A program made the position numbers and the translations under genes. Of a stretch of DNA of 64,000 nucleotides, positions 14,586-61,050 are shown piece after piece (positions within the stretch are counted from its first letter, which is position 1; every line of letters begins with the position of its first letter). Source of the DNA: Candidatus Magasanikbacteria bacterium RIFOXYD1_FULL_40_23 (GTDB lineage Bacteria > Patescibacteriota > Patescibacteriia > Magasanikbacterales > GWA2-37-8). The notes under the pieces are model-generated. The model was not told the DNA's origin. It saw only the letters and a program-made list of their open reading frames with translations, and made no database searches. The DNA is taken from contig MFRA01000005.1 of NCBI GenBank assembly GCA_001783215.1, positions 146,824 to 210,823 of the forward strand, written 5' to 3'.

Positions 14586-14837
14586 ATGTCAAATAGACAA
14601 GAGCGTGGAATAGGTGAAGAAAATATAGAAGTTTTTCAAAATCCGGACAAACCGGTTGTGGAAGCTAGTCCGCTGGCTCCGGGGGTGCTAAAAGTAAAAA
14701 GAGGTGATGCGCCACCATCAGTAAATAAGGTAGATAGAGCGACTGCGCAAGCAAGACTCGATTCTTTAAAGGGACCTGGGTCTAAAATTGTAGGTGGTGG
14801 GTCTGCACCTAGTCGAAATGGAAAATTTAGTAGATGA
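14586..14837 (+). CDS. hypothetical small Gly/Pro-rich protein (GC-rich)
   Basis: 83-aa ORF followed by a clean terminator. Confidence 0.4.
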   Translation: MSNRQERGIGEENIEVFQNPDKPVVEASPLAPGVLKVKRGDAPPSVNKVDRATAQARLDSLKGPGSKIVGGGSAPSRNGKFSR

Positions 14838-14842
14838 AATGA

Positions 14843-14876
14843 AAATCCGGTCGCATTGTGCGAGCGGATTTTTTCT
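14843..14876 (+). terminator. rho-independent terminator
   Basis: aaatccggtcgcattgtgcgagcggatttttt. Confidence 0.6.
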
Positions 14877-14923
14877 TTGTGCTACTAGAATAACTACGTT
14901 TCGCTTAAAGCACGAGAGGGTGA

Positions 14924-17725
14924 TTGTTCGTTGACAATACACCGAAACTTGCAACCGATAGGAAGTACCAAATGTCGAAATCTCCAAAGAAAAGGACCCC
15001 AGCAGAGGAGCTGGCTTGGTTATGTGATTTTTCTATTACCGCCTGCGTGGCTCACGTGAGTGAGTTTGCGCCAGGCACTGATTATTTCAAGGCTGCCGAA
15101 GCAGATGCATCGGTGGTCATTGAGAGTCTAAAGCAGACGCCGGATCTCACAGGTGTGATTATCGACGGTATGGCCAGCGTGCGCCGTCCCGGTATTCTTG
15201 ATGACAGCGTGGTGTTCTATAACAGTACCGAAGAAGAGGTGCTCGCACACCTTGAAAAGGTGCCATCGCACGACCACGTTCACTGGATGTTTAACAAACT
15301 TTTAGAGATCCAAGATGTGTGGCTTGGCAAATTCCGTAAGGCGTTGCCGGCAGTCAAGATTGTTTATTCGGCCGACTCGGACGACTTGGCAGCTACGGCC
15401 GAGCGCATGTTGCGGGTGATTGTGCAGTCTGCAACGGTAAAAGCTTCTCAGACTAAGAAGAGTTTGGAAGAGCAGCGTGATGAGCTGCAAGCCAGGCTCG
15501 ATGGTCCGGGCAAGCTGACTAGCTCTGTTCTGCAGGCTAAGTTGCACGAGCTCCAATCTAAGCGCAAAAAGTTGGTTGGAACCTCTGGTAAGAGTGAGCT
15601 CAGGGCAGTTGAGGCTGATTTTGCCGAGGCGAAAGAAGGCCTACATCTTCTCGCTGAGCGTGAGCGGTTGGTAATTAAGCTTCGAGTCAATAAGGCAAAG
15701 AAGAAGCAAAAGTTAATCGAAAAAACCGAAGCCGAGCTGGTTTCGGTTCAAGCCGAGATTAGCGCCAGAGAAGATGGTGTGGTCAAGGCACTGAACAAGG
15801 CTATTGAAGCTAGAGAAAGGTTCAGTGGCGAGGTTGGCAAGAAAGCCGATCGCGATGCCCTTGATTTGGACATTAAAGAGCTTCGAAAGAGCATCGAAGA
15901 TATTAGAGAAAAAATTGCCAAGATCCAAACCAGAATGACCAAGCTGGAAAAGGTCTTTAAGAACTTGCGTGAATCGGAAACTAGCCCGGTATACGGTAAG
16001 CGTATGACCGAGCACGTGCGCAGGTTGTATAAGCGCTTCTATGCTTTGGGTCAAAAGCACAATGTCCAAGTTGTGTTCAAGCCCGAAGTGCTGGTCTTTG
16101 GAAATTTGGTGATTGACTATGCGCACGATCGCGGCCGCACTTGGCAGCCGATGCCTGGGCGTGTGCGTCGATTGGCAGAGTCGTATCATGGAATGATGAC
16201 AAGCTATCGTGAAAACATTGCCGAAGCGCTGGAGGAGCAAAAGGCTGCTACGCGCGAGGTGGATGTTGTTATGGAGAGCGGTCATCACGGTGTCTTCTTT
16301 GCTCGTTGGCAGAAGCAGGAGCTTACGCCGGAAGAAATTCGCATGCAGCACGTGAACACGTACTACACGGGTGCAAGCGATGATGTGAAACACACGGTGT
16401 TTATTGCAGGTATGCCGTTTGAGCCGCAAGATGAGATCGATAAGTACCTCAAGCGACAGAAGCCGGGTCGGACCCGTGCTGGCAAGCCTATTGCCAGTTC
16501 TTCGCACCCCGTGTTTATTCGTAACTCTCAGAAGTCAGTTGCCGGTGTGACGCTTGTGCGTAAACACAACCACGGACTAATTTCCGTGGAAGCGATTATG
16601 TACTTTCTCTACCGGAATAAGCAGGTGTTGGAACAGTTCAAGGGCGTGATGATTCTGCTTGATTCAGATAATCACTTGAACTCGCCCGAAATGGATTGCC
16701 CAGGCACTCTCGGTGAGCTTGCCCTTCTTGATCAGCTGATCAAGAATCCTATGGTGCTCTACAACCAGAAGATCTATGTGGGTGGCAACCTTAACTTGGG
16801 TGATGTATCCGAAGCGAACTCCAAGAAGTGGAAAGAGGCAGTTAAATTCCGTCGCCCGGTGATGGAAATTCTTCAGGAAATCGCTATGCTCGTCGCTGGA
16901 ACTGATACCAGCAACCCCAAGTCTGTGGCCGAGACTGCGCTTCGTTGGGCCAACGACATGATGGGTGGAGCAAACGAGAGTATGAAGTTGAATATGCGGG
17001 TAACGAAGTGGTTCCTCAAGGAGAAATTCATGAGGATCTATAATCAGAGCCCGACTCGTTTGCGCGACATTATGGCCGTGTTGGAGGGCAATCACTTTGC
17101 CGATGCGGTGCGTGATGTTGGTATTCAGGAGTTTACTTTGTTTGAGGAGTGGTTAATTGCTATGCGGGATGCGCACATTGATTTTCCGGAGAAGGGGCGC
17201 AAGCCTTTCCCTGTGAGAATCGAGGCCGGTGGCGAACCGCAATACTTCCAGCCGGATAATGGCAAGGCCGAAGTAGTGGTGCACTTAGGAGGTTATAGCA
17301 GTGCTCGACAAGGAATTATTGAGAAGTTTGGTGTGGGCCATGATGGCAAGTTGCTAGTGCAAGCTCCTTGTAGGGTTGGGCTCACTCACGAGCCGAACGC
17401 CATCTTGAATAAGGCTCGTAACCAGAACGCTGACGTGACCTATGCGGGGCATACGCATGAGTTTTACGTCATGGCAGATAAGAGTGGCACTAACAAGGTG
17501 CGTTTCATCCATCAGCTGGGTGCAACGCAGCGAGTGTCTGCTACAGAGCTAATGTATGGTGGATTGCCTCGTACGTCTGGAGTAGCGCTGGCTGTTATTC
17601 CGCGTCCAGGGCGATATTGGACTATGATGATCCCTATGAACCACATGCGTCGCATTGGTGAGGCGCAGCGAATGGTTGATGCAGAAGCAGAGGTGGCCAA
17701 GAAGAATGGTAAAAAGAAAGAGTAA
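14924..17725 (+). CDS. large hypothetical protein (933 aa). It has an N-terminal domain, a long coiled-coil region and a C-terminal region with weak metallophosphatase-like motifs. An alternative start at 14972 is possible.
   Basis: Long GC-rich ORF (~52% GC). Heptad-like charged segment around aa 180-360. DYAHDRG and GHTHEFYV resemble calcineurin-like phosphoesterase motifs II and VI; this is tentative. The alternative start MSKSPKK has an SD (ggaagtaccaaATG). Confidence 0.55.
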   Translation: MFVDNTPKLATDRKYQMSKSPKKRTPAEELAWLCDFSITACVAHVSEFAPGTDYFKAAEADASVVIESLKQTPDLTGVIIDGMASVRRPGILDDSVVFYNSTEEEVLAHLEKVPSHDHVHWMFNKLLEIQDVWLGKFRKALPAVKIVYSADSDDLAATAERMLRVIVQSATVKASQTKKSLEEQRDELQARLDGPGKLTSSVLQAKLHELQSKRKKLVGTSGKSELRAVEADFAEAKEGLHLLAERERLVIKLRVNKAKKKQKLIEKTEAELVSVQAEISAREDGVVKALNKAIEARERFSGEVGKKADRDALDLDIKELRKSIEDIREKIAKIQTRMTKLEKVFKNLRESETSPVYGKRMTEHVRRLYKRFYALGQKHNVQVVFKPEVLVFGNLVIDYAHDRGRTWQPMPGRVRRLAESYHGMMTSYRENIAEALEEQKAATREVDVVMESGHHGVFFARWQKQELTPEEIRMQHVNTYYTGASDDVKHTVFIAGMPFEPQDEIDKYLKRQKPGRTRAGKPIASSSHPVFIRNSQKSVAGVTLVRKHNHGLISVEAIMYFLYRNKQVLEQFKGVMILLDSDNHLNSPEMDCPGTLGELALLDQLIKNPMVLYNQKIYVGGNLNLGDVSEANSKKWKEAVKFRRPVMEILQEIAMLVAGTDTSNPKSVAETALRWANDMMGGANESMKLNMRVTKWFLKEKFMRIYNQSPTRLRDIMAVLEGNHFADAVRDVGIQEFTLFEEWLIAMRDAHIDFPEKGRKPFPVRIEAGGEPQYFQPDNGKAEVVVHLGGYSSARQGIIEKFGVGHDGKLLVQAPCRVGLTHEPNAILNKARNQNADVTYAGHTHEFYVMADKSGTNKVRFIHQLGATQRVSATELMYGGLPRTSGVALAVIPRPGRYWTMMIPMNHMRRIGEAQRMVDAEAEVAKKNGKKKE

Positions 17726-17898: not shown

Positions 17899-19236
17899 TT
17901 AAATCCACTTTTTAAGTAACTCACCAAACTTATTTTGTTCAATTGCAGTTCGTGCTTGGTTCATTAGATCAAGCATAAAATATAAATTGTGAATGCTGGC
18001 CAAACGCATGCCGGAAAGTTCGCCAGCATTAAAAAGATGGTGCACGTACGCACGAGAATAATTTATGCAAGTATGGCATTTGCAATCTGGATCTATGGCG
18101 CCAGTATCTTTTGCATATTTTTTATTTGTAATATTGATTCGTAACTTTTCGTCTATATTTCTGTTTACAAATACCATGCCATGTCTGGCCAGTCTGGTAG
18201 GAGCCACACAATCAAACATATCTACGCCGTGCTCTATTGCAATAAGTAAATCTGTAGGGGACAAGCCGATACCCATAGCATAGTGCGGTTTGTTTTCTGG
18301 AATAAGAGGAAATACCCAGTCTAAAATATCGGCCGTTGCTTTCATATTATATCCCACAGATTCGCCGCCAATGGCGATACCGTCAAAATCTAAAGATGAA
18401 ATATATTTGGCAGATTCTTCGCGTAGATTTTTGTAAACAGATCCTTGGATAATACCAAAAAGAAATTGTTTATAATCACGAGTATTTTTTGTAGATAATT
18501 CTTTGTGCGCATCTAGGGATCGTTTGGCCCAGCGGTGGGTGCGTTCCATTGCTTCGCGCGCATATTTTTCTTCTACATTGTCCGGAGTGCATTCATCAAA
18601 TGCCATTATAATATCGGCGCCAATTTTGTGTTGGATCTCTACGGCTATTTCTGGAGTAAAGCGATGTGAGCTCCCATCTATATGTGAGCGAAAAGTAACA
18701 CCTTCTTCATCTATAGAAACAAGTTGGCCTTGTTCTCGTTTGTCATTCTGAGGCGTAGACGAAGAATCCCTTTTGTCCGAACGAGAGGGATCCTTCACTC
18801 CGTTCAGAGCCTGTCCTGAGTTTGTCGAAGGGATGACAGACTGCTGTCGGTCATCTTTTTGTTTGCCCAAACTAAATACTTGAAAACCACCACTATCGGT
18901 AAGGATTGGCTTGTTCCAGTTCATGAATTTGTGAAGTCCGCCAAAATCGTTTATTAAATCTTCGCCCGGGCGTAAATGCAAATGGTAAGTATTACCCAAG
19001 ATAATCTGAGCTGGTAAATTTTGCAGGTCAGTTTGGTCTAGAGTTTTGACTGTGGCTTGTGTGCCGACAGGCATAAAAATAGGTGTTTGAATATCACCAT
19101 GATCTGTATGGATTATGCCAGTTCTGGCACGGGAATTTGTGTCTTTGTGTTGTAGTTCAAAAAATGACATATTTTGGGGAAAGCTTAGCATGATTTTTGC
19201 TTTGTAGCAATGATATATAAATAAGCCCCAGGACAT
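17899..19236 (-). CDS. tgt: queuine tRNA-ribosyltransferase carrying an in-frame ~40-aa low-complexity insertion
   Basis: Tgt hallmarks are present (TPIFMPVGTQATVK, FSLG...EEGVTFRSHIDGS, DECTP). An extra hydrophilic segment, KQKDDRQQSVIPSTNSGQALNGVKDPSRSDKRDSSSTPQNDKREQ, is encoded by the R3 repeat at 18741-18840. Confidence 0.85.
   Translation of the reverse strand: MSWGLFIYHCYKAKIMLSFPQNMSFFELQHKDTNSRARTGIIHTDHGDIQTPIFMPVGTQATVKTLDQTDLQNLPAQIILGNTYHLHLRPGEDLINDFGGLHKFMNWNKPILTDSGGFQVFSLGKQKDDRQQSVIPSTNSGQALNGVKDPSRSDKRDSSSTPQNDKREQGQLVSIDEEGVTFRSHIDGSSHRFTPEIAVEIQHKIGADIIMAFDECTPDNVEEKYAREAMERTHRWAKRSLDAHKELSTKNTRDYKQFLFGIIQGSVYKNLREESAKYISSLDFDGIAIGGESVGYNMKATADILDWVFPLIPENKPHYAMGIGLSPTDLLIAIEHGVDMFDCVAPTRLARHGMVFVNRNIDEKLRINITNKKYAKDTGAIDPDCKCHTCINYSRAYVHHLFNAGELSGMRLASIHNLYFMLDLMNQARTAIEQNKFGELLKKWI
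18741..18840. repeat. R3 palindromic (MITE/RPE-like) element, copy A, inserted in-frame within tgt
   Basis: tgtcattctgaggcgtagacgaagaatcccttttgtccgaacgagagggatccttcactccgttcagagcctgtcctgagtttgtcgaagggatgacag shares the X/Y/Z modules with the copies at 21709-21738 and 22035-22168. Confidence 0.65.
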
Positions 19237-19257
19237 CTAGTCCTAGGGCGGTCATCC

Positions 19258-19878
19258 TTACTGCGCAAGCAGTGCAGCCTGTCCATCTGCAACTCGCCTG
19301 ATCTCGTCTCGCAACCACGTAGTGCGTGGTTGGTATTGTGGCGGAGTGAGCTGGACCATTCGGTCAAAAAGATGGTAGTAGTGGTCGCGAGTTTCTGCTA
19401 CCTGCTTTTTACGGAACGCTTCATCGGTCTGTGCAAGGTCTCGAAGATTGAAAAGTCTATCGCAACCTTTGATGGCAAGCATTTCCCAATCAATGGATAG
19501 CATTAGACGTTCCAAGTATCCCTCTTCCGGGATCTTGCTTAGACCCTTTACCTTGGTAACCACATTGCTTCCAAATGCATGCTCAATCATTTCAGGTGTT
19601 AGGTCTTCCGTGTCTTCCAGACTATCGTGCAGCAGAGCAGTGATAATCATCTCGGCATCAACGATTTTCACTTCGTCGATCAAGATTAGTGCCGCTCCGC
19701 GCAGGTGTTCGAAATACCGGATTGGTTTCCCTTCATCATCCACGCTCTTGCGAACTTGGGCGCGATGCCCAAACTTTGCCATCATGTAAGCGAATCGAAT
19801 GTCGCACAGTATGCTGGGAGCGAAGAACGGGTTGATACGGCTAAAGAACAGCTCTTTGTTTTCGACGGGCTTCGTCAC
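19258..19878 (-). CDS. HD-domain protein; RelA/SpoT-type (p)ppGpp hydrolase domain (small alarmone hydrolase-like)
   Basis: HRAQVRKSVDDEGKPIRYFEHLRGAALIL...ALLHDSLEDTEDLTPEMIEHAFGSNVVTKVKGLSKI matches the SpoT HD hydrolase motif pattern (HxGQxRK...LLHDxxEDT...FG..V..lV.gvtK). Confidence 0.7.
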   Translation of the reverse strand: MTKPVENKELFFSRINPFFAPSILCDIRFAYMMAKFGHRAQVRKSVDDEGKPIRYFEHLRGAALILIDEVKIVDAEMIITALLHDSLEDTEDLTPEMIEHAFGSNVVTKVKGLSKIPEEGYLERLMLSIDWEMLAIKGCDRLFNLRDLAQTDEAFRKKQVAETRDHYYHLFDRMVQLTPPQYQPRTTWLRDEIRRVADGQAALLAQ

Positions 19879-20101
19879 TAGTTTCCTCCTACTTGGATTG
19901 TGAAAGAATGGGTGATTATATGTAAATTTTTTATAACTGTCAATAGTAGTATTATAAATATGAATTTATTAAAAATAATCCCCAAGTAGGTAGTGTTTGT
20001 TGCTCTGGTGTCGATGGTAAAGATGTGGTAGTATTTACTTGGTTAAATTTTAAGTGTATTGTATGCCAGGAGAAAAACCAGGCGGTAATCCAGGAGAAAA
20101 A

Positions 20102-20626
20102 ATGAGAGATGAATTCGATTTGAATACTGAGCCTACTCCAGAAGAAGAAGCGAGACAAAAAGAATTGGCTCAAGCAAGAATGGATCGGCTGGCTCAAAGA
20201 AGTGAAGAAAGGAAATCTGTAAAAGCAAAGCCTGCAGTAGTGGGGGAAGTGGATTCTCCTTTTGAAAATCCTGTTAAAGCTCCTAAATTAGGAAAGATAA
20301 AAGACAATGTATCAAAATTAAGTTTGGGAACAAGCAGTACTAGGAGGGCACAAGAAGCCAAACAGTCTGGATTTATGAGTGGTAGATCCGAAGAAGGCCA
20401 AGAAACAGACCGTAATAGAGACATAAAAGATATATTAAAGAAATTTGTTTTTGCTGGTAGTTTTAAATTACGCACATCACAAGAAAAAGGAAAATTTGTT
20501 TTGAGAGTTCTCTCTGGAATAGAAGGGCATAAAGATACCAGGGTGATATTGAAAGTTGAAGGTACAATGGAAGATATTAAAGCCAAGTTAGAAAAACATT
20601 TGAATCATAACTTTACAAGAAAATAA
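20102..20626 (+). CDS. hypothetical Lys/Glu-rich protein
   Basis: Internal ATG with an SD (aatccaggagaaaaaATG). No motif recognised. Confidence 0.4.
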   Translation: MRDEFDLNTEPTPEEEARQKELAQARMDRLAQRSEERKSVKAKPAVVGEVDSPFENPVKAPKLGKIKDNVSKLSLGTSSTRRAQEAKQSGFMSGRSEEGQETDRNRDIKDILKKFVFAGSFKLRTSQEKGKFVLRVLSGIEGHKDTRVILKVEGTMEDIKAKLEKHLNHNFTRK

Positions 20627-20648
20627 TATATTAAAACCATAACGGTCT

Positions 20649-21707
20649 ATGCCTGGTGCAAAGTTGGTGCTAAAAGATGGTTCGGAATTTGAGGGGTTTT
20701 CTTTTGGTTCAGAGACTAGCATGGCAGGAGAAGTGGTATTTAACACAGGTATGGTCGGCTATCCCGAAACCATGACCGATCCTTCGTACAGAGGGCAAAT
20801 TTTGGTACTTACTTATCCGTTGGTAGGAAATTATGGTGTGCCGGGCGACGCAAACCCAGAAGAACTTTTTAAAAATTTTGAATCAGACAAAATCCAAATT
20901 CAAGGATTAATTGTAAGTGAGCAGTGTGAAGGATTTTCTCATTGGAGCGCCAAGCAATCTTTGTCTGATTGGATGAAAAAAAATAATATTCCAGGAATAT
21001 TTGGTGTAGACACGCGCGAGCTTACCAAAAAATTACGCTCTAGTGGTACTATGCTGGGTAAGATTGTAGTAGAAAATACTACGATAGATTTTGAAGATCC
21101 TAATTTACGTAATTTGGCAGCTGAAGTAAGTGTGAAAGAGCCTGTGCGATATGGCGCAGGAGAAAAAACAGTAATAGTGGTAGATTGTGGTGTAAAAAAT
21201 AATATCATTCGTTCGTTTGTAAATAGAGGCATTTCGGTTTTACGAGTGCCTTGGAATTATAATTTCTTAGAAGAAAAAGCTGACGGCATACTTATTTCTA
21301 ATGGTCCGGGTGATCCAAAAATGTGTACAGACACAATTGCCAATGTAAGATCTGCTTTGGCAGGCAATAGGTCAATACTTGGTATATGTTTGGGTTCGCA
21401 AATTTTGTCGCTCGCTGCCGGAGCCAACACTTATAAATTAAAATATGGGCATAGGGGCCAGAATCAGCCATGCGTAGAAATGGGAACAAAAAAATGTTTT
21501 ATCACTTCACAAAATCATGGTTTTGCAGTGGACACAAAAACCCTGCCACAAGATTGGCGCGAGTGGTTTACCAATGATAACGACGGCACAAACGAAGGTA
21601 TTATTCATATTTCTAAACCATTTTTTGGCGCACAGTTTCACCCGGAAGGCGCGCCCGGCCCAGACGACAGCGAGTTTATTTTTGATATGTTTATACGAAC
21701 ATTGTAG
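20649..21707 (+). CDS. carA: carbamoyl-phosphate synthase small (glutaminase) subunit
   Basis: The CarA N-domain (GEVVFNTGMVGYPETMTDPSYRGQILVLTYPLVGNYGVP) plus a class I GATase domain (ICLGSQ...HGF). Confidence 0.9.
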   Translation: MPGAKLVLKDGSEFEGFSFGSETSMAGEVVFNTGMVGYPETMTDPSYRGQILVLTYPLVGNYGVPGDANPEELFKNFESDKIQIQGLIVSEQCEGFSHWSAKQSLSDWMKKNNIPGIFGVDTRELTKKLRSSGTMLGKIVVENTTIDFEDPNLRNLAAEVSVKEPVRYGAGEKTVIVVDCGVKNNIIRSFVNRGISVLRVPWNYNFLEEKADGILISNGPGDPKMCTDTIANVRSALAGNRSILGICLGSQILSLAAGANTYKLKYGHRGQNQPCVEMGTKKCFITSQNHGFAVDTKTLPQDWREWFTNDNDGTNEGIIHISKPFFGAQFHPEGAPGPDDSEFIFDMFIRTL

Positions 21708-21708
21708 C

Positions 21709-21738
21709 TGTCATTCTGAGCAAAGCGAAGAATCCCTT
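21709..21738. repeat. R3 element copy B (X module only), immediately after the carA stop codon
   Basis: gtcattctgagcaaagcgaagaatccctt. Confidence 0.6.
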
Positions 21739-21773
21739 AACCTACGAATAATAAAGATTACTATGTCTACATT

Positions 21774-22034
21774 ATGGCCAGTGAAAGTGGAACATTGTAT
21801 GTCGGCGTAACAAACGATTTAACCCGCAGAATTTCAGAGCACAAACAAAATTTAATTGAAGGTTTTACTAAAAAATATAAATGTCATAAATTAGTATATT
21901 ACGAAAACTATTCAGATATAAAACAGGCTATTGCGAGAGAAAAGGAGATAAAAGGATGGTTAAGAAAAAAGAAAGAACAGTTAATTAAAAATATAAATCC
22001 TGGTTGGAAGGATTTAAGTGTAGAGTGGGTGTAA
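21774..22034 (+). CDS. GIY-YIG nuclease family protein (small UPF0213/YhbQ-like); possibly N-terminally disrupted
   Basis: GTLYVGVTNDLTRRISEHKQ...KLVYYE...AIAREKEIKGW. The in-frame upstream codons encode the conserved YYVYI strand, but there is no start codon between it and an upstream TAA. The R3 repeat abuts the gene. Confidence 0.6.
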   Translation: MASESGTLYVGVTNDLTRRISEHKQNLIEGFTKKYKCHKLVYYENYSDIKQAIAREKEIKGWLRKKKEQLIKNINPGWKDLSVEWV

Positions 22035-22168
22035 AGGGATCCTTCATTTCATTCAGAGCCTGCACTGAGCCGTAGCGAATGTGATGACAACGCCTGTCAT
22101 TCTGAGCAAAGCGAAGAATCCCTCTTGTCCGAACGAAAGGGATCCTTCACTCCGTTCAGGATGACAAA
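22035..22168. repeat. R3 element copy C (compound Y'-Z-X-Y-end modules), immediately after the GIY-YIG stop codon
   Basis: agggatccttcatttcattcagagcctgcactgagccgtagcgaatgtgatgacaacgcctgtcattctgagcaaagcgaagaatccctcttgtccgaacgaaagggatccttcactccgttcaggatgacaa. The imperfect terminal inverted repeats are TGTCATTCTGAGC and GTTCAGGATGACA. Confidence 0.65.
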
Positions 22169-22207
22169 ACGGATCGATTAGCTATAAATCCGCGTAATCC
22201 GTGTTTT

Positions 22208-25200
22208 ATGATCAGAAATATCAAACCAAAGAAAATTTTAATCCTAGGCTCCGGCGCTCTGCAGATTGGGCAGGCTGGCGAGTTTGATTATTCTGGAAGT
22301 CAGGCAATCAAAGCCTTAAAAGAAGATGGAATTTTTACAGTATTGGTCAATCCAAATATCGCTACTATCCAAACTTCAGATCATTTAGCAGATAAAGTAT
22401 ATTTTTTGCCGCTTAATATTTTTTTCGTAGAACAAGTAATTGCCAAAGAAAAACCGGATGGTATTTTGCTTGGCTTTGGTGGTCAGACTGCACTAAATGT
22501 TGGCGTGCAACTCTACGAAAAAGGTATTTTAGAAAAGTACAATGTAAAAGTTTTGGGTACACAGGTAGAAGTAATAAAAGACACAGAAGATAGGCAATTA
22601 TTTTCTAACAGAGTGGCAGAGGTTGGGTTAAAAGTCGCTAGAAGTGTAACTGCCGGCACTGTTCAAGAAGCACTGGACGCTGCAGACAAAATTGGCTATC
22701 CGGTAATGTGTCGCGTGGCTTATGCTTTGGGCGGATTAGGGTCGGGAATTGTGCAAAACAAAGCCGAGTTGGAAGAAAAAACAAACAGAGCTTTTGCTTT
22801 TACAAATCAAGTTTTAATTGAAGAATGTTTGTATGGTTGGAAAGAAGTAGAATACGAAATTGTACGCGATGTCCACGATAATTGTATTACGATTTGTTCC
22901 ATGGAAAATTTTGATCCAATGGGTATCCATACTGGAGATAGTATCGTGGTAGCACCTGTGCAAACTCTTACTGCCAAAGAAAATTTTAATTTGCGTGCTA
23001 TTGGTATAAAGCTAATTAGGCATCTAGGAATTATTGGTGAGTGCAATATTCAATATGCGCTGGATCCAAACTCTGGTGATTATCGTATTATAGAAGTAAA
23101 TGCTCGTCTTAGCCGCAGTTCGGCTCTAGCTTCCAAAGCTACCGGCTATCCGCTGGCGTTTGTGGCTACCAAATTGGCTTTGGGTTATGCGCTTAACGAA
23201 GTAGAAAATATTATAACCAAAGAAACCTCGGCCTGTTTTGAGCCAGCACTTGATTATATTACGCTTAAATTTCCTCGTTGGGATTTGCAGAAATTTGAAC
23301 ATGTAAACAAAGTGCTTGGTACAGAAATGAAATCTGTGGGGGAAGTAATGGCAATTGGCCGTAGTTTTGAAGAAGTTCTGCAAAAAGCGATTCGCATGTT
23401 GGACGTTGGTATGAATGGTTTGGTAGGTAATGACATTGATTTTGCAGAATTAGATAAAGAAATTACTCAGCCAACAGACAAAAGGATTTTTGCGATTGTC
23501 CAGGCTATAAAATCCGGATATTCTATAGAAAAAGTTCACGAACTTTCCAAAGTTGATAATTGGTTTTTGCATAAACTAAAAAATATAATTGATTTGGAAA
23601 GTAAATTAAAAAATTATAATTTAGAAACTCTGCCTATAGAAGTTTTGCGACCAGCCAAACAAGCCGGATTTTCGGACAAACAAATAGCTGGGGTAATAGG
23701 TTCTGTGGCCGAAGCGGTACGCGCCAAGCGAAAATCATTGGGAGTGTTGCCGGTTGTAAAGCAGATAGATACTCTAGCCGCCGAGTACCCCGCTAAAACA
23801 AATTATTTATATCTTACATACAATGGCCGCGAAAACGATATTGTTCGCTCTACAGAAAAACAAGTTATAGTGCTTGGCAGTGGTCCGTATCGCATTGGTT
23901 CGTCGGTAGAGTTTGATTGGTGTTGTGTAAATTCTCTCATGAGTCTGCAAAAAGCTGGTTACAAAACTATTATGATAAATTGTAATCCAGAAACTGTTAG
24001 TACTGACTACGATGTTTCCGACCAATTATATTTTGAAGAATTAAGCCTAGAAAAGATTTTGGATATTTATGAATTTCAACAGCCGTTGGGCGTGGTAGTT
24101 TCTATGGGTGGCCAAACACCAAATAATTTGGCTCTAAAGTTGCACAATGCGGGTGTAAAAATTTTGGGTACAACGCCGGAACAAATAGATAATGCCGAAA
24201 GCAGGCATAAATTTTCTCAGATTTTGGATAGTCTAGAAATAGACCAGCCGGAATGGAAAGAACTTACCGATATAGATTCGGCCAAAGAGTTTGCGCAGCG
24301 AGTGGGATATCCGGTTTTGGTGCGCCCCAGCTATGTTCTTAGTGGTGCTGCGATGAGCATATCTTATAGTGAAGATGATTTGGAATTATTTTTGAAAAAA
24401 GCAGTTGATTTAAACAAAGAATATCCGGTGGTGATAAGCAAATTTATTACCAAGGCTAGAGAGATAGAGATGGATGCGGTAGCCAACAATGGCGAGTTAT
24501 TTTGCTATGCCATTTCCGAACATTTAGAAAACGCGGGCGTGCATTCTGGAGATGCTACGCTTGTATTTCCTCCACAAAAAACATATTTGGAAACAACTCG
24601 CAGATTAAAAGTAATTGCCAAAGAAGTGGCCAAGGCTTTGCAAATTACTGGTCCGTTTAATATGCAGCTCATTGCCAAAGATAATGATATTAAAGTAATT
24701 GAATGCAATTTGCGCGCATCTCGCAGTTTTCCATTTGTATCCAAAGTTTTAAAAATAAATTTTATAGATATTGCTACCAGATTAATGATGGGGGAGTCTG
24801 TACCGAAATTAAGTCGATCGTCTTTCGATTTGGATTATGTGGGTGTAAAAGCGTCGCAATTTTCTTTTACCAGATTAAAGGGTTCTGATCCAGTGACGCG
24901 CGTAGAGATGAGTTCTACTGGAGAGGTGGCGTGTCTAGGAGATAATTTGAATGAAGCGTTTTTGAAAAGCGTAATTTCTACTGGTTTTAATGTGGAGCCA
25001 AAATCAGTTTTGTTATCTATTGGTTCGCTGGATAAAAAAACCGCCTTTTTGGAAGAAGCTAAAATTTTGCAGACTATGGGAGTAAAAATTTATGCTACCA
25101 CCGGCACAGGCGCATTTTTGAAAGAAAATAATATTGAAGCAGAAGTTTTGGAATGGAATTTGGAAAATGGCCAACCAAATGTGATGTCGCACTTGTCCGA

Positions 25201-29200: not shown

Positions 29201-29347
29201 TTTAAAAAATAAAATTGGTAATTTGTCCATCCGGACAGAGATCCCTGCTCCACCGCTAAAGCTATGGCGGCACGCGGTCGTCGGCCCAAAGGGGCCTCGC
29301 TCGGGATGACAAACCAATCCAGAACTCAAATAATTAATAAATAAATT

Positions 29348-57566: not shown

Positions 57567-58859
57567 ATGCAAACTTTTATCAAAAATTTAGCATCTCTGG
57601 TAGATCAGGAAGTAGAGATTAAAGCTTGGTTATATAACAAACGTTCCTCTGGGCCGATTGCCTTTTTGGAATTGCGAGACGGTACCGGTTGGGTGCAAGC
57701 TGTGGCAGCAAAGTCCGATTTGAGCGCTACTGTGTGGGAAGACGTAGAAAAAGCTACTCAAGAATCATCTGTGGTAATTTTGGGTAAAGTAGCTAAACAC
57801 CCAAAAAAAGAAAATGTTTTTGAGTTGCAAGTTAAAGATTTTAAAATTATTCAATTGGCTCAAGAGTACCCAATTGCTCACAAAGAACATGGCCCAGATT
57901 TTCTAATGGAGAATCGGCACTTGTGGTTGCGTAGTAAAAAGCAATGGGCGATATTGCGTGTACGTGATTCTATTATTACTGCTATCGGTGAATATCTACA
58001 CAAAGAACTTTTTATAAAAGTAGATTCACCAGTATTTACGCCAAATGCCTGTGAAGGTACAACCACGCTTTTCCCAGTGCCATATTTTGATTTGGGCACA
58101 GCGTACTTATCTCAATCTGGTCAGCTGTATATAGAAGCAGCCATCGCTTCCGTTGGTCGTTGTTATGATTTTGGGCCAGTGTTTCGTGCCGAAAAAAGTA
58201 AAACAAAAAGACATCTAACAGAGTTTTGGATGATGGATGCCGAAGCTGCTTTTGTAGAGCATGAAGAAAATTTAAAAATCCAAGAAGGATTGGTGCGATA
58301 TATAATTCGCTACTGTTTAAATAACTGCCAAGAAGAATTGAGAATTTTGGAACGCAATACGGAGCCATTAGAAAAAGCCGACAATCCATTTACTCGTTAT
58401 ACTTATGATGAAGCAATAAAGAAATTAAACGAGCTTGGGTCAGACATAAAATATGGTGAAGATTTAGGAAATGATGATGAGGGAATACTAACCAAAGATT
58501 CTGAAGTGCCAGTATTTATAGAAAAATGGCCAAAAAGCATAAAGCCGTTTTATATGAAACGAGATTCTGTTAATCCGGATTTGGTTTTAAATGATGATTT
58601 AATTGCGATAGAAGGTGCGGGAGAGATAATCGGTGGGAGTCAGCGTGAAGATGATTATGATTTGCTACTATCTAGAATAAAAGCGGAAGGTTTAAATATA
58701 GAAGATTACCAATGGTATTTAGATTTGCGAAAATATGGAAGTGTGCCCCATGCTGGATTTGGTATTGGTTTAGAACGTATGGTTCGTTGGGTTACTGGTG
58801 TAGAGCATATTCGTGAATGTATTCCATTTCCTAGGACGATTGGAAGATTAAAGCCATAA
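57567..58859 (+). CDS. asnS: asparaginyl-tRNA synthetase (class IIb)
   Basis: FRAEKSKTKRHLTEFWMMDAE (AsnRS-type EFWM motif), GGSQRE, and the class II motif 3 GFGIGLERMV. Confidence 0.75.
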   Translation: MQTFIKNLASLVDQEVEIKAWLYNKRSSGPIAFLELRDGTGWVQAVAAKSDLSATVWEDVEKATQESSVVILGKVAKHPKKENVFELQVKDFKIIQLAQEYPIAHKEHGPDFLMENRHLWLRSKKQWAILRVRDSIITAIGEYLHKELFIKVDSPVFTPNACEGTTTLFPVPYFDLGTAYLSQSGQLYIEAAIASVGRCYDFGPVFRAEKSKTKRHLTEFWMMDAEAAFVEHEENLKIQEGLVRYIIRYCLNNCQEELRILERNTEPLEKADNPFTRYTYDEAIKKLNELGSDIKYGEDLGNDDEGILTKDSEVPVFIEKWPKSIKPFYMKRDSVNPDLVLNDDLIAIEGAGEIIGGSQREDDYDLLLSRIKAEGLNIEDYQWYLDLRKYGSVPHAGFGIGLERMVRWVTGVEHIRECIPFPRTIGRLKP

Positions 58860-58903: not shown

Positions 58904-59056
58904 TTTATTCTTAGCCAAATTTTGACTTGTAAACATTGACAAAATGGCAAAAATATGATAATAATATGCGCAGATAACCCTCCGCTTTGGAGGGCTCTTT
59001 GACAATGTGTGGCGGTTAGATTCGCTACACATAAGACACAGTCGGGGGAAACGTCA

Positions 59057-60331
59057 ATGGCTTTCGAACAGAAACAGGCAACAGGAAGTGGTGCTTTGGA
59101 TAATAGCGCGGAAGGTGCCAGCTATCGGGCTGGTGCTGGTGGGCAGAAAGGCAATGGTGCTGCTGCCGGGAAGGTTCCGGCGACCTCCAAGCTTAGGGTC
59201 AAGCCTAAGCAGGCTGCTGAACCCGAAGAGATCGTTATGACCGGCCACCCCTTGCTCGACAAGGGGCTTGCCTGTGATGATCGAGAGGGCAAGGCGCCTG
59301 AATGTCCGCTTGATGAGCGGGACGCCAAACGTCTTGAAGATATGGTTGAGCGTGCGGGCACGGCCTATTGTATGGCCATGATCATGGCGCTCGGCAATCT
59401 CTATCTCGAGTTCAAGACCAAGCATCACAAGACTTGGGGTCCGTGGCATGAGATTTTCTTTCTCGTTGTAACCACAGCGGCCTTCGGTCCGCTTGGTGCG
59501 CTTGGTGCCTCGGTAGGAGCTCGTGCAGCTGTGGGGCTCGCGATGCGTGGTGCCACAAGGGCAGCATGGACAGCAGCCAGCATTGATGCATCGAAGCTCA
59601 TTGGCGTTTTCACTACGATGTCGAAGGGTGTGCGTAGCTCCCTTGCCCATCGTAGCGTTGATATGCCGACCGACGAGATTGAGTTCATCAAGTACATGCA
59701 GGACCAGGTGCCGGGCTTCGTCGAGAATCTCATGCAAGGCATTGCTGAGCATGAACTTGATCAGCTCGAGATGCTCGAAGTGGTCGCCCGGCTACAAGAT
59801 CCGGACATTTCCGGACGGGCTGCTATTGAGCACCGTGGCCGTACGTTGTTGGCACAGTTCGGCGAGAACCGCATCGGTTCGATTGGGAATGTTATGGACC
59901 TTGGTGGAGGTTACGAAGTAGCTACTCCAGTACGCGTTCGTCTTCGCAAGAAGGAATTAATGGTTCTATGTGAAAGCCTTGGTGTTCACCATTCGGCCCT
60001 TGCGCTTAATGGTGCCAACCTGGACCTGGAACCAGGTGTTTCTAAGATGACGATGGAGAGCCTAGTCTACGTCAAGATGATTGAACCGGCTTTTCATGAG
60101 CTGGTTACCGCTGAGTACAGTGGTAAGCGGAAAGAGGAAGTTCCGTTCATCAACTTCGATGATTGCGCCGAGCGAAAGAAACATCGTTGGTTCAAAGATA
60201 TGTACCACGATATGAAGCGGCGCGAACGGCTTGAAAAATATATCGACGATATGCACAACATTGGCGGGCTGCCTGCCAATGACATGGACGACGAAAACAA
60301 TGGTGACATGGTCGCCGAAGCGGGAGAGTGA
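59057..60331 (+). CDS. hypothetical protein (GC-rich, ~55% GC; internal Gly/Ala-rich hydrophobic segment)
   Basis: 425-aa ORF. SD gggggaaacgtcaATG. Preceded by a TTGACA...TAATAAT promoter (~58938-58966) and the hairpin ccctccgctttggaggg. Confidence 0.5.
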   Translation: MAFEQKQATGSGALDNSAEGASYRAGAGGQKGNGAAAGKVPATSKLRVKPKQAAEPEEIVMTGHPLLDKGLACDDREGKAPECPLDERDAKRLEDMVERAGTAYCMAMIMALGNLYLEFKTKHHKTWGPWHEIFFLVVTTAAFGPLGALGASVGARAAVGLAMRGATRAAWTAASIDASKLIGVFTTMSKGVRSSLAHRSVDMPTDEIEFIKYMQDQVPGFVENLMQGIAEHELDQLEMLEVVARLQDPDISGRAAIEHRGRTLLAQFGENRIGSIGNVMDLGGGYEVATPVRVRLRKKELMVLCESLGVHHSALALNGANLDLEPGVSKMTMESLVYVKMIEPAFHELVTAEYSGKRKEEVPFINFDDCAERKKHRWFKDMYHDMKRRERLEKYIDDMHNIGGLPANDMDDENNGDMVAEAGE

Positions 60332-60959: not shown

Positions 60960-61041
60960 GCCGAAGTGGCGGAATTGGTAGACGCACACGACTCAAAATC
61001 GTGCGGAGAAATCCATGAGAGTTCGATTCTCTCCTTCGGCA
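60960..61041 (+). tRNA. tRNA-Leu (anticodon CAA), type II with a long variable arm
   Basis: GCCGAAGTGGCGGAATTGGTAGACGCACACGACTCAAAATCGTGCGGAGAAATCCATGAGAGTTCGATTCTCTCCTTCGGCA. Anticodon loop ACTCAAAAT. Confidence 0.85.
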
Positions 61042-61050
61042 CAATATTAT

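Follow-up and report, generated by a model that had tools for sequence, protein, structure and literature searches.

The 64,000-nt window analysed here, from Candidatus Magasanikbacteria bacterium RIFOXYD1_FULL_40_23 (contig MFRA01000005.1), a member of the candidate phyla radiation (CPR), contains a small family of palindromic repeats, one copy of which lies in frame within tgt, the gene for queuine tRNA-ribosyltransferase. It is highly probable that tagged DNA hairpins, paired head to head, make up these repeats, that they belong to the superfamily of CGTC/TGTC-tagged repetitive extragenic palindromes (REPs), also described as Ssn-related motifs (SRM), and that one doublet, copy B, holds a gene for an ssnA-type GIY-YIG nuclease. 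The unit consists of a (T/C)GTC tag, a stem that starts with A-T and T-A pairs and holds a tandem G.A/A.G, a GNA-type loop and a C after the stem. Both parts are already published, the Ssn GIY-YIG nucleases with such hairpins in PMC11893778 and the REPs in PMC3733652. The modestly new points are the CPR host, an arm of G.A type that the published motif does not cover, and clear signs, from comparison with relatives, that recurrent protein loops have seen recent turnover.

Hairpin doublets, tgt and the GIY-YIG gene

The basic unit, or arm, is a tagged hairpin of about 26 nt, (T/C)GTCAT-stem-loop-stem-ATC, and arms are arranged as inverted doublets. In the window arm the stem spans 8 positions, two of its pairs being G.A; the loop reads CAAAG and the tail CCC. 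The initial annotation had described three loci built from shared X, Y and Z modules, and all three are where it had placed them. The 29-nt X module has exactly two perfect occurrences in the window (21709-21737 and 22095-22123; 0.00 expected in shuffles), the Y core has three (18786, 22035 and 22138; none in shuffled sequence), and the Z module (CAGAGCCTGyCCTGAGnnTGTCGAAGGGA) is found at 18808-18838 and 22057-22089. The Z module recurs almost verbatim in unrelated metagenome contigs (L169, L131), downstream of their GIY-YIG genes, and appears to be a conserved "long-form" arm of about 50 nt with a second CTGAG...CGAAG core. Over the 64 kb, an arm covariance model of 27 positions matched only the arms of copies A, B and C, four of them in full (E<2e-6) and two in part, the partial matches lying within the long right arms of copies A and B.

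Copy A (18741-18838, 98 nt), a head-to-head SRM/CGTC-type REP doublet within the tgt coding sequence, combines a short arm on the forward strand (18741-18768; 37.8 bits in the arm model) with a long-form arm on the reverse strand (18786-18838; partial match at 18793-18807, reverse strand). It is covered by the repeat families D1, D2 and D4, and it shares its left arm and spacer with copy C, the right arm being longer in copy A. The left arm of copy B (21709-21734, forward strand; 40.2 bits, E=2.6e-7) lies 1 nt past the carA stop codon and is an SRM hairpin in forward orientation; its sequence, TGTCAT-TCTGAGC-AAA-GCGAAGA-ATC, is also that of the left arm of copy C. The long-form right arm of copy B (22035-22089, reverse strand) directly follows the ssnA stop codon, ends in GATGACA, and is placed in repeat family D1 at 86% identity, with a partial arm-model match at 22042-22056 on the reverse strand. 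The GIY-YIG open reading frame (ORF) sits between these two arms, in the "loop" of copy B. Copy C (22095-22166) is a separate, complete short/short doublet of 72 nt, arm-14-nt spacer-arm, that follows copy B at a distance of 5 nt and precedes carB by 41 nt; its arms (22095-22120, forward, and 22141-22166, reverse) score 40.2 and 36.6 bits. A link between the repeats and the GIY-YIG gene had been proposed and holds, although the bracketing is not by copies B and C as was then supposed: the two arms of copy B alone bracket the gene, and copy C merely abuts copy B.

On folding, a check suggested at the outset, copy C forms a single hairpin of 72 nt, with a DNA folding energy of -14 to -16 kcal/mol and a z of about -2.7. 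Its two arms differ by paired changes (T-A to C-G; G-C to A-T) by which the local hairpins are kept and arm-to-arm pairing is weakened. Because these paired changes preserve each arm's own hairpin, the arm is the unit under selection. The rpsL leader contains a fourth locus, copy D (29222-29313), a GC-rich palindromic insert of about 92 nt whose bounds are TTTGTC...GATGACAAA and which folds as a long imperfect hairpin. The initial annotation had called it a degenerate relative of the other copies. The insert itself is real, being absent from the orthologous rpsL leader of the relative L201, whereas the arm model gives no match to it at E<=10. Since the L201 leader is without the 92-nt palindrome, we read copy D as a decayed insertion, probably a decayed doublet.

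The tgt gene (17899-19191, reverse strand; Pfam TGT E=7.6e-147, in two stretches) was read as 424 aa; the database protein P0001, a 100% match, has 430 aa, and insert-free Tgt orthologs have about 385 aa. The extra loop comprises residues 104-151, 48 residues as compared with 2 in Zymomonas Tgt, and the alignment to solved Tgt structures is split at 103|152 of the query and 112|115 of the solved chain. Copy A contributes to this loop; of its frames one alone is fully open, VIPSTNSGQALNGVKDPSRSDKRDSSSTPQND, and tgt uses that one, the window arm variant encoding the peptides VIPST...TPQNDK. The earlier observation that the copy lies in frame and free of stops between FSLG and EEGVTF was correct. 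In an AlphaFold model built on 35 orthologs the barrel is confident (mean predicted local distance difference test score, pLDDT, 82; predicted template modelling score, pTM, 0.80), and residues 96-149 have pLDDT<50 and are without secondary structure. According to the model, the segment that bears copy A is a disordered, floppy surface loop. Tgt would tolerate copy A because the loop is disordered and the frame fully open. The insertion is stop-free, in frame, in a housekeeping gene and at a site compatible with the fold, and insertions of this kind recur at two Tgt loops; the comparison with Rickettsia palindromic elements (RPEs) that had been drawn on these grounds is well founded as to behaviour.

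The ssnA-type gene (21741-22034, forward strand; Pfam GIY-YIG E=8.7e-15) encodes a protein of 86-93 aa in which Pfam has no domain besides GIY-YIG. From 21741 onward the frame is open, and translation from its first ATG, at 21774, gives 86 aa, the length also called in other assemblies. The GIY motif (DYYVYI) lies upstream of this ATG, and an ACG stands at 21744-21746 where homologs carry ATG. Residues Y6, Y16, R26 and E63 are invariant in the alignment of its relatives, with Y6 again upstream of the first ATG. The local copy may be inactive, binding-only or started at a rare codon, and may be decaying. With proteins that have the canonical motif of the Neisseria hairpin repeat NTS at their flanks it shares 59-66% identity, and with those next to strict NTS consensus matches 61-66%; its nearest solved structures are the UPF0213 entries 1zg2 and 1ywl, and its family comprises 16,103 clusters at 50% identity with E<=1e-3, or 5,209 with E<=1e-10. 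We take the gene to be a putative ssnA homolog, its assignment to cd10448 being by proxy, through the NTS-flanked relatives. Many database relatives (P0121-P0270) are 110-170 aa long as compared with a domain of about 90 aa, and the match often begins at residue 20-60. Probably the repeats have misled annotation here, the gene calls having run on through arms that are free of stop codons.

Conservation of the arm and its linkage to GIY-YIG genes

A motif scan of one genome per species with GTCATTCTGAG-N4-8-CGAAGAATC gave matches in at least 120 stretches. Among the matches listed, about 20 bacterial phyla are represented, with hosts that range from CPR and Bacteroidota to Helicobacter, Clostridia and Planctomycetes, and the prevailing form is the doublet: a forward arm, a variable spacer of 10-60 nt and a reverse arm. 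Complete elements, 69 in number, have the ends T|GTCAT...ATGAC|A and lengths of 57-237 nt, and T or C precedes GTCAT in 67 of the 69. None of them has a target-site duplication, flanking direct repeats being at or below chance for k=2-8. The initial annotation had advised a search of related genomes, and further copies were indeed found, with 15 arm-model matches in 42 kb of two related Magasanikbacteria contigs. Around GIY-YIG genes (L121-L200), the arm model gave 212 matches in 246 kb, against 6 by the published degenerate SRM pattern in the same 246 kb; as transcribed from the Methods of that paper, the pattern systematically misses G.A-type arms. A crude regular-expression arm detector, which gave 0.6 false positives per kb in shuffled sequence, was kept for distances only, and arm counts were taken from the covariance model.

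The stem shows compensatory change. Doubly changed stem cells number 105 against 26 in shuffles, and 0 of 500 shuffles reach 105, counts that are inflated in so far as the alignment under the arm model was fitted to structure. The double changes are U-A to C-G, C-G to U-A and G-C to A-U, and the pairs 5-71 (A-U) and 6-70 (U-A) dominate the alignment. Among 111 distinct arms the 8-pair main helix has zero one-sided (G.U-type) changes, and the tandem G.A/A.G at the two central positions is kept in 111 of 111. Because wobble pairs are absent and the G.A tandem is fixed, the alignment points to an arm that acts as a DNA hairpin rather than as an RNA helix. The stem variants seen are TCTGAG, TCCGAG, TCCCGC, TTCGAC and CCTGAG, with the GTCA tag and the post-stem C invariant throughout; the invariant arm positions, G2 T3 C4 A5 and C26, coincide with the positions critical for cleavage and binding by SsnA (PMC11893778). 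A hammerhead-like reading of GUC...CUGA...GAA was dropped, as helix I is missing and the core is incomplete.

The arms are linked to GIY-YIG genes well beyond the window. A gene for a relative of the window GIY-YIG protein is present, among the matches listed, at 4 of 120 genome loci, and at 3 of these it stands directly beside the motif match. The loci L004, L074, L019 and L060 have the gene-in-the-loop layout, with an arm shortly upstream of the start codon and an inverted arm at the stop codon; the arms of L060 are of a different stem variant. The forward arm precedes the matched start by 3-121 nt, mostly 20-35 nt, and the reverse arm lies 0-20 nt past the stop. A metagenome scan with the alignment of these GIY-YIG proteins gave at least 587 confirmed relatives. 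For the 70 loci among the matches listed that have both flanks, a strong inverted repeat between the 150-nt flanks was present in 31, as compared with 2 of 70 shuffled controls, and nearly all of these flank-to-flank repeats start with TGTCAT. The window gene likewise has inverted hairpin repeats on its 5' and 3' sides, as NTS-flanked genes do.

Turnover among relatives and competing explanations

SRM-type peptides are present at the Tgt loop that is filled in the window (site 1) in 15 of 120 cluster representatives, and at a second Tgt loop (site 2) in 6 of 120 by a strict signature, or about 11 by eye. With inserts masked, the Tgt core of the window is 95% identical to that of its nearest ortholog, P0002, and the two are mirror images in their loops: site 1 is filled and site 2 empty in the window, site 1 is empty and site 2 filled in P0002. 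Fitch parsimony on a neighbour-joining tree of the 120 Tgt relatives requires no fewer than 10 changes at site 1 and 6 at site 2. The segment had been expected to be unique to this lineage on alignment of Tgt orthologs; it is missing from the nearest ortholog, and its loop holds SRM-type peptides in the 15 representatives just mentioned. An unrelated repeat type is present at site 1 in 4 of 120 representatives. This second peptide type (SPLPRGSAEGV...NPSLERRGDN or PPLKKGG...NPPLFKDG) is found at site 1 in P0017, P0028, P0032 and P0055 and at site 2 in P0009 and P0055. Because it occupies both loops, other CPR repeat families seem to use the same permissive Tgt sites.

The spacer between carA and carB varies as well. 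It is 15 nt long and empty in L201/L202, in L203 it is filled by a short doublet with a different stem variant, and in the window, where the right flank is homologous, it contains the ssnA-bearing unit and copy C. Between tgt and carA the window has an HD_4-domain gene (19258-19878, reverse strand) and a Lys/Glu-rich ORF of 190 aa (20054-20626, forward strand); both are also in L203 and both are absent from L201/L202, in which tgt abuts carA. At 14801-14928 and 16011-16083, L201 also has doublets with arms that come close to the NTS consensus of Neisseria (TTGTCATTCCCGCCAAAGCGGGAATCCAG), so that one CPR lineage hosts several arm subfamilies.

How might such a pattern come about? The hairpins would form on DNA that is transiently single-stranded, in replication, in repair or in the uptake of transforming DNA. 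By analogy with characterised homologs, the nuclease would act on these single-stranded hairpins and nick 5' of the tag, and hairpin and nuclease together would make up a selfish or domesticated module that resembles an insertion sequence (IS). Short doublets would be gained, lost or overwritten without target-site duplication, new copies arising, or old ones being overwritten, possibly by repair or template switching. Copy A would have landed in, or been kept at, the disordered surface loop of Tgt in its fully open frame. A stronger proposal is that the CPR SRM doublets and the ssnA unit are currently mobile, with the Ssn nuclease mobilising or homing a duplication-free GIY-YIG class of transposable element whose doublets repeatedly enter the two Tgt loops or replace each other there. 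We infer mobility from presence/absence differences alone, and the proposal is a tentative one, possible but on balance doubtful. If true, it would supply the first comparative evidence for a mobility that is only hypothesised in PMC11893778, and it would extend the system to a G.A-type hairpin missed by the published motif.

Several points count against the interpretation as hairpin doublets with a nuclease, or against their movement. Comparison of L201 and L203 with the window does not yield a clean empty/filled junction at tgt or at carA-carB, owing to extra indels in the flanks. The window arms do not match the SRM pattern HGTCWYN(0-2)YYVSBRHN(0-5)WNVSBRGN(0-2)RNCYNB, which the NTS-type arms of L181 do match. 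The window ssnA is without ATG, GTG or TTG upstream of the GIY tyrosine, and a second ssnA copy was not found in the 64 kb. The window has four repeat loci only, three of them within 3.5 kb. To these are added the proxy assignment to cd10448 and the inflation of the pairing counts mentioned above.

Domestication of the module is compatible with the identification of the repeats as tagged hairpin doublets. Nuclease and hairpins would then restrict or shape incoming single-stranded transforming DNA, as in Neisseria, and CPR bacteria are thought to depend on DNA uptake. In N. meningitidis, SsnA lowers transformation by NTS-bearing DNA about 5-fold, and domestication was proposed by the authors of that work (PMC11893778). 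We nevertheless hold it to be somewhat unlikely for the window, as the start codon of the local ssnA appears to be lost, and selfish spread fits better with insertions in coding loops and with the fast turnover seen between near-identical lineages.

A role mainly as RNA structures is improbable. The elements would be mRNA stabilisers, attenuators or terminators between carA, ssnA and carB, and the copy in tgt a by-product. Copies B and C do lie within the carA-carB operon spacer, and the hairpins fold with RNA parameters as well. The apical GCGAAGC/GCGNAGC with its GNA loop is, however, a classic ultra-stable DNA mini-hairpin, and such loops are typical of very stable DNA hairpins. The lack of G.U pairs in the main helix of the 111 arms would be unusual for a selected RNA helix. 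Rfam, searched at gathering and at permissive thresholds, returned chance-level matches only, no terminator-like site was found at 21500-22400, and a promoter scan around copies B and C was also negative. REPs are often transcribed and sited downstream of ORFs (PMC3733652), but SsnA does not bind RNA (PMC11893778), and the elements occur in both orientations.

The initial annotation had named the family MITE-like, that is, miniature inverted-repeat transposable elements. A palindromic repeat family it is, but a classical MITE, a non-autonomous element derived by deletion from a DDE-type insertion sequence, whose transposase would mobilise it in trans via the terminal inverted repeats, is very unlikely. 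The terminal inverted repeats TGTCAT...ATGACA, the small size and the one longer copy that carries a gene would fit; the lack of target-site duplications in the 69 complete elements and their highly variable length and spacer would not, the inner gene is a nuclease domain of about 90 aa rather than a transposase, and the conserved unit is a hairpin with compensatory changes rather than a linear terminal repeat. That the Tgt segment is an old lineage-specific loop resembling the repeats, or an assembly artefact, is scarcely credible: loop length does vary in many orthologs even without repeats, but the segment's DNA is a full arm-model match with a spacer shared with copy C, the nearest ortholog is without the segment, and, because the 11 kb around copies A-C are 100% identical in independent ENA and JGI assemblies (three assemblies in all), assembly error is excluded, at copy A as elsewhere in this region.

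The identification as tagged hairpin doublets with an ssnA-type gene joins three literatures in one 3.5-kb CPR stretch, those on RPEs in proteins, on "enzyme-less" CGTC REPs and on Ssn single-stranded DNA (ssDNA) nucleases. Near-identical relatives with empty, short-filled and gene-filled sites make up a natural experiment on Ssn/hairpin movement, and the G.A-type arm with its own nuclease is a candidate for a new specificity in ssDNA-cutting tools. In the annotation of CPR proteins, loops derived from repeats and spurious extensions at the N or C terminus are to be expected.

Two other ORFs in the window were recorded. One, at 14924-17725 on the forward strand, has 933 aa and about 50% GC in a 40% GC genome, with no Pfam match on record; in relatives, the position next to tgt is taken by an unannotated ORF of other length (552, 778 or 800 aa). 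The other, of 440 aa (59009-60331, forward strand), lies in a 55% GC island between an AsnRS-like gene (57567-58859) and a tRNA-Leu gene (60960-61042), and it looks foreign.

Comparison with known systems

What the window elements have in common with the REPIN-RAYT and IS200/IS605 systems is a tagged hairpin of ssDNA, the arrangement in inverted doublets, the lack of a target-site duplication and an enzyme gene that stands between copies of its own repeat. REPIN-RAYT relies on an HUH Y1 tyrosine transposase and a GTAG tag. Neither is present at this locus, where the tag is TGTC/CGTC and the flanked gene encodes a GIY-YIG hydrolytic nuclease. We know of no strand-transfer chemistry for GIY-YIG enzymes.

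The likeness to CGTC REPs is closer. These have stems of 8-9 bp that begin with A-T and T-A, loops of 4-5 nt, a short tail of 3 nt and an unpaired CGTC/TGTC tag (Di Nocera 2013, PMC3733652). They are mostly head-to-head dimers, heterodimers included, were found by that survey in 5 phyla, are in some cases intragenic and in frame, and are said to "lack a dedicated transposase" (PMC3733652). The window units share with them the TGTC/CGTC tag, the A-T/T-A start of the stem, the short loop, a tail that starts with CC, the head-to-head dimers and the occurrence of in-frame copies within genes. They differ in that they are linked to ssnA, that their stems have two non-canonical pairs, and that some arms are of the long form.

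With RPEs the elements share the palindromic structure, the in-frame position in housekeeping genes and the addition of hydrophilic loops. Other RPE families, RPE-1 for example, have no relation to these units and are longer. Neisseria dRS3 and R. conorii RPE-6 and RPE-4 have been equated with CGTC units, RPE-6 being CGTC-1 and RPE-4 being CGTC-4 (PMC3733652), and the intragenic CGTC peptides of R. conorii are VIPAKAGI, SFPRKRES, DSRFRGND and WIPWSNHGMT (PMC3733652 supplement). Another R. conorii unit, of CGTC-4, lies in RC0283, annotated as "tRNA ribosyltransferase-isomerase" (PMC3733652 supplementary file 4). The peptide VIPAKAGI of CGTC-1 is also found in the CPR Tgt ortholog P0032 (VVIPAKAGIQ...GFPLAGMT), and the CPR Tgt ortholog P0108 carries DSRFHGND, a near-match to DSRFRGND. 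RC0283 is presumably QueA, another enzyme of the queuosine pathway, and the match with Tgt is probably a coincidence. Because R. conorii CGTC peptides recur in CPR Tgt orthologs, the relation to RPEs is probably one of kinship and not only of analogy. The published equation and the shared peptides argue for shared ancestry of the repeat type, and the earlier statement that the sequence is unrelated to RPEs was wrong at the superfamily level. The window arm variant does encode other peptides than the R. conorii units.

The closest counterpart is the Ssn system. SsnA is a 94-aa single-domain GIY-YIG protein (cd10448) that binds the hairpin CGTCATTCCCGCGMAVGCGGGAATCYRG. It recognises the forward strand, and this only when single-stranded; the reverse strand, double-stranded DNA and RNA are not bound (Chenal 2025, PMC11893778). 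It cuts a few nucleotides 5' of the tag, as established by biochemistry on four homologs; binding depends critically on the C that follows the palindrome, and cutting on the three bases that precede it (PMC11893778). Residues Y6, Y17 and E64 were mutated, and mutation of the GIY tyrosine abolishes cleavage (PMC11893778). Such motifs are present in 71% of Ssn homolog neighbourhoods, on both sides in 42%, the NTS-ssnA-NTS layout was termed IS-like, the repeats were called SRM, and 2% of NTS are intragenic in N. meningitidis (PMC11893778). The window pair, known from its sequence, differs from this system in the CTGAG...CGAAG stem with tandem G.A, in a gene without a canonical start codon, in one doublet that lies inside a coding sequence, and in its CPR host (Magasanikbacteria), CPR being unmentioned in PMC11893778. 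It agrees with the Ssn system in the single-domain GIY-YIG protein of about 90 aa, the inverted flanking hairpins, the 5' (C/T)GTC tag, the post-stem C and the dispersed doublets, and its conserved Tyr, Tyr and Glu at positions 6, 16 and 63 stand close to the mutated Y6, Y17 and E64 of SsnA.

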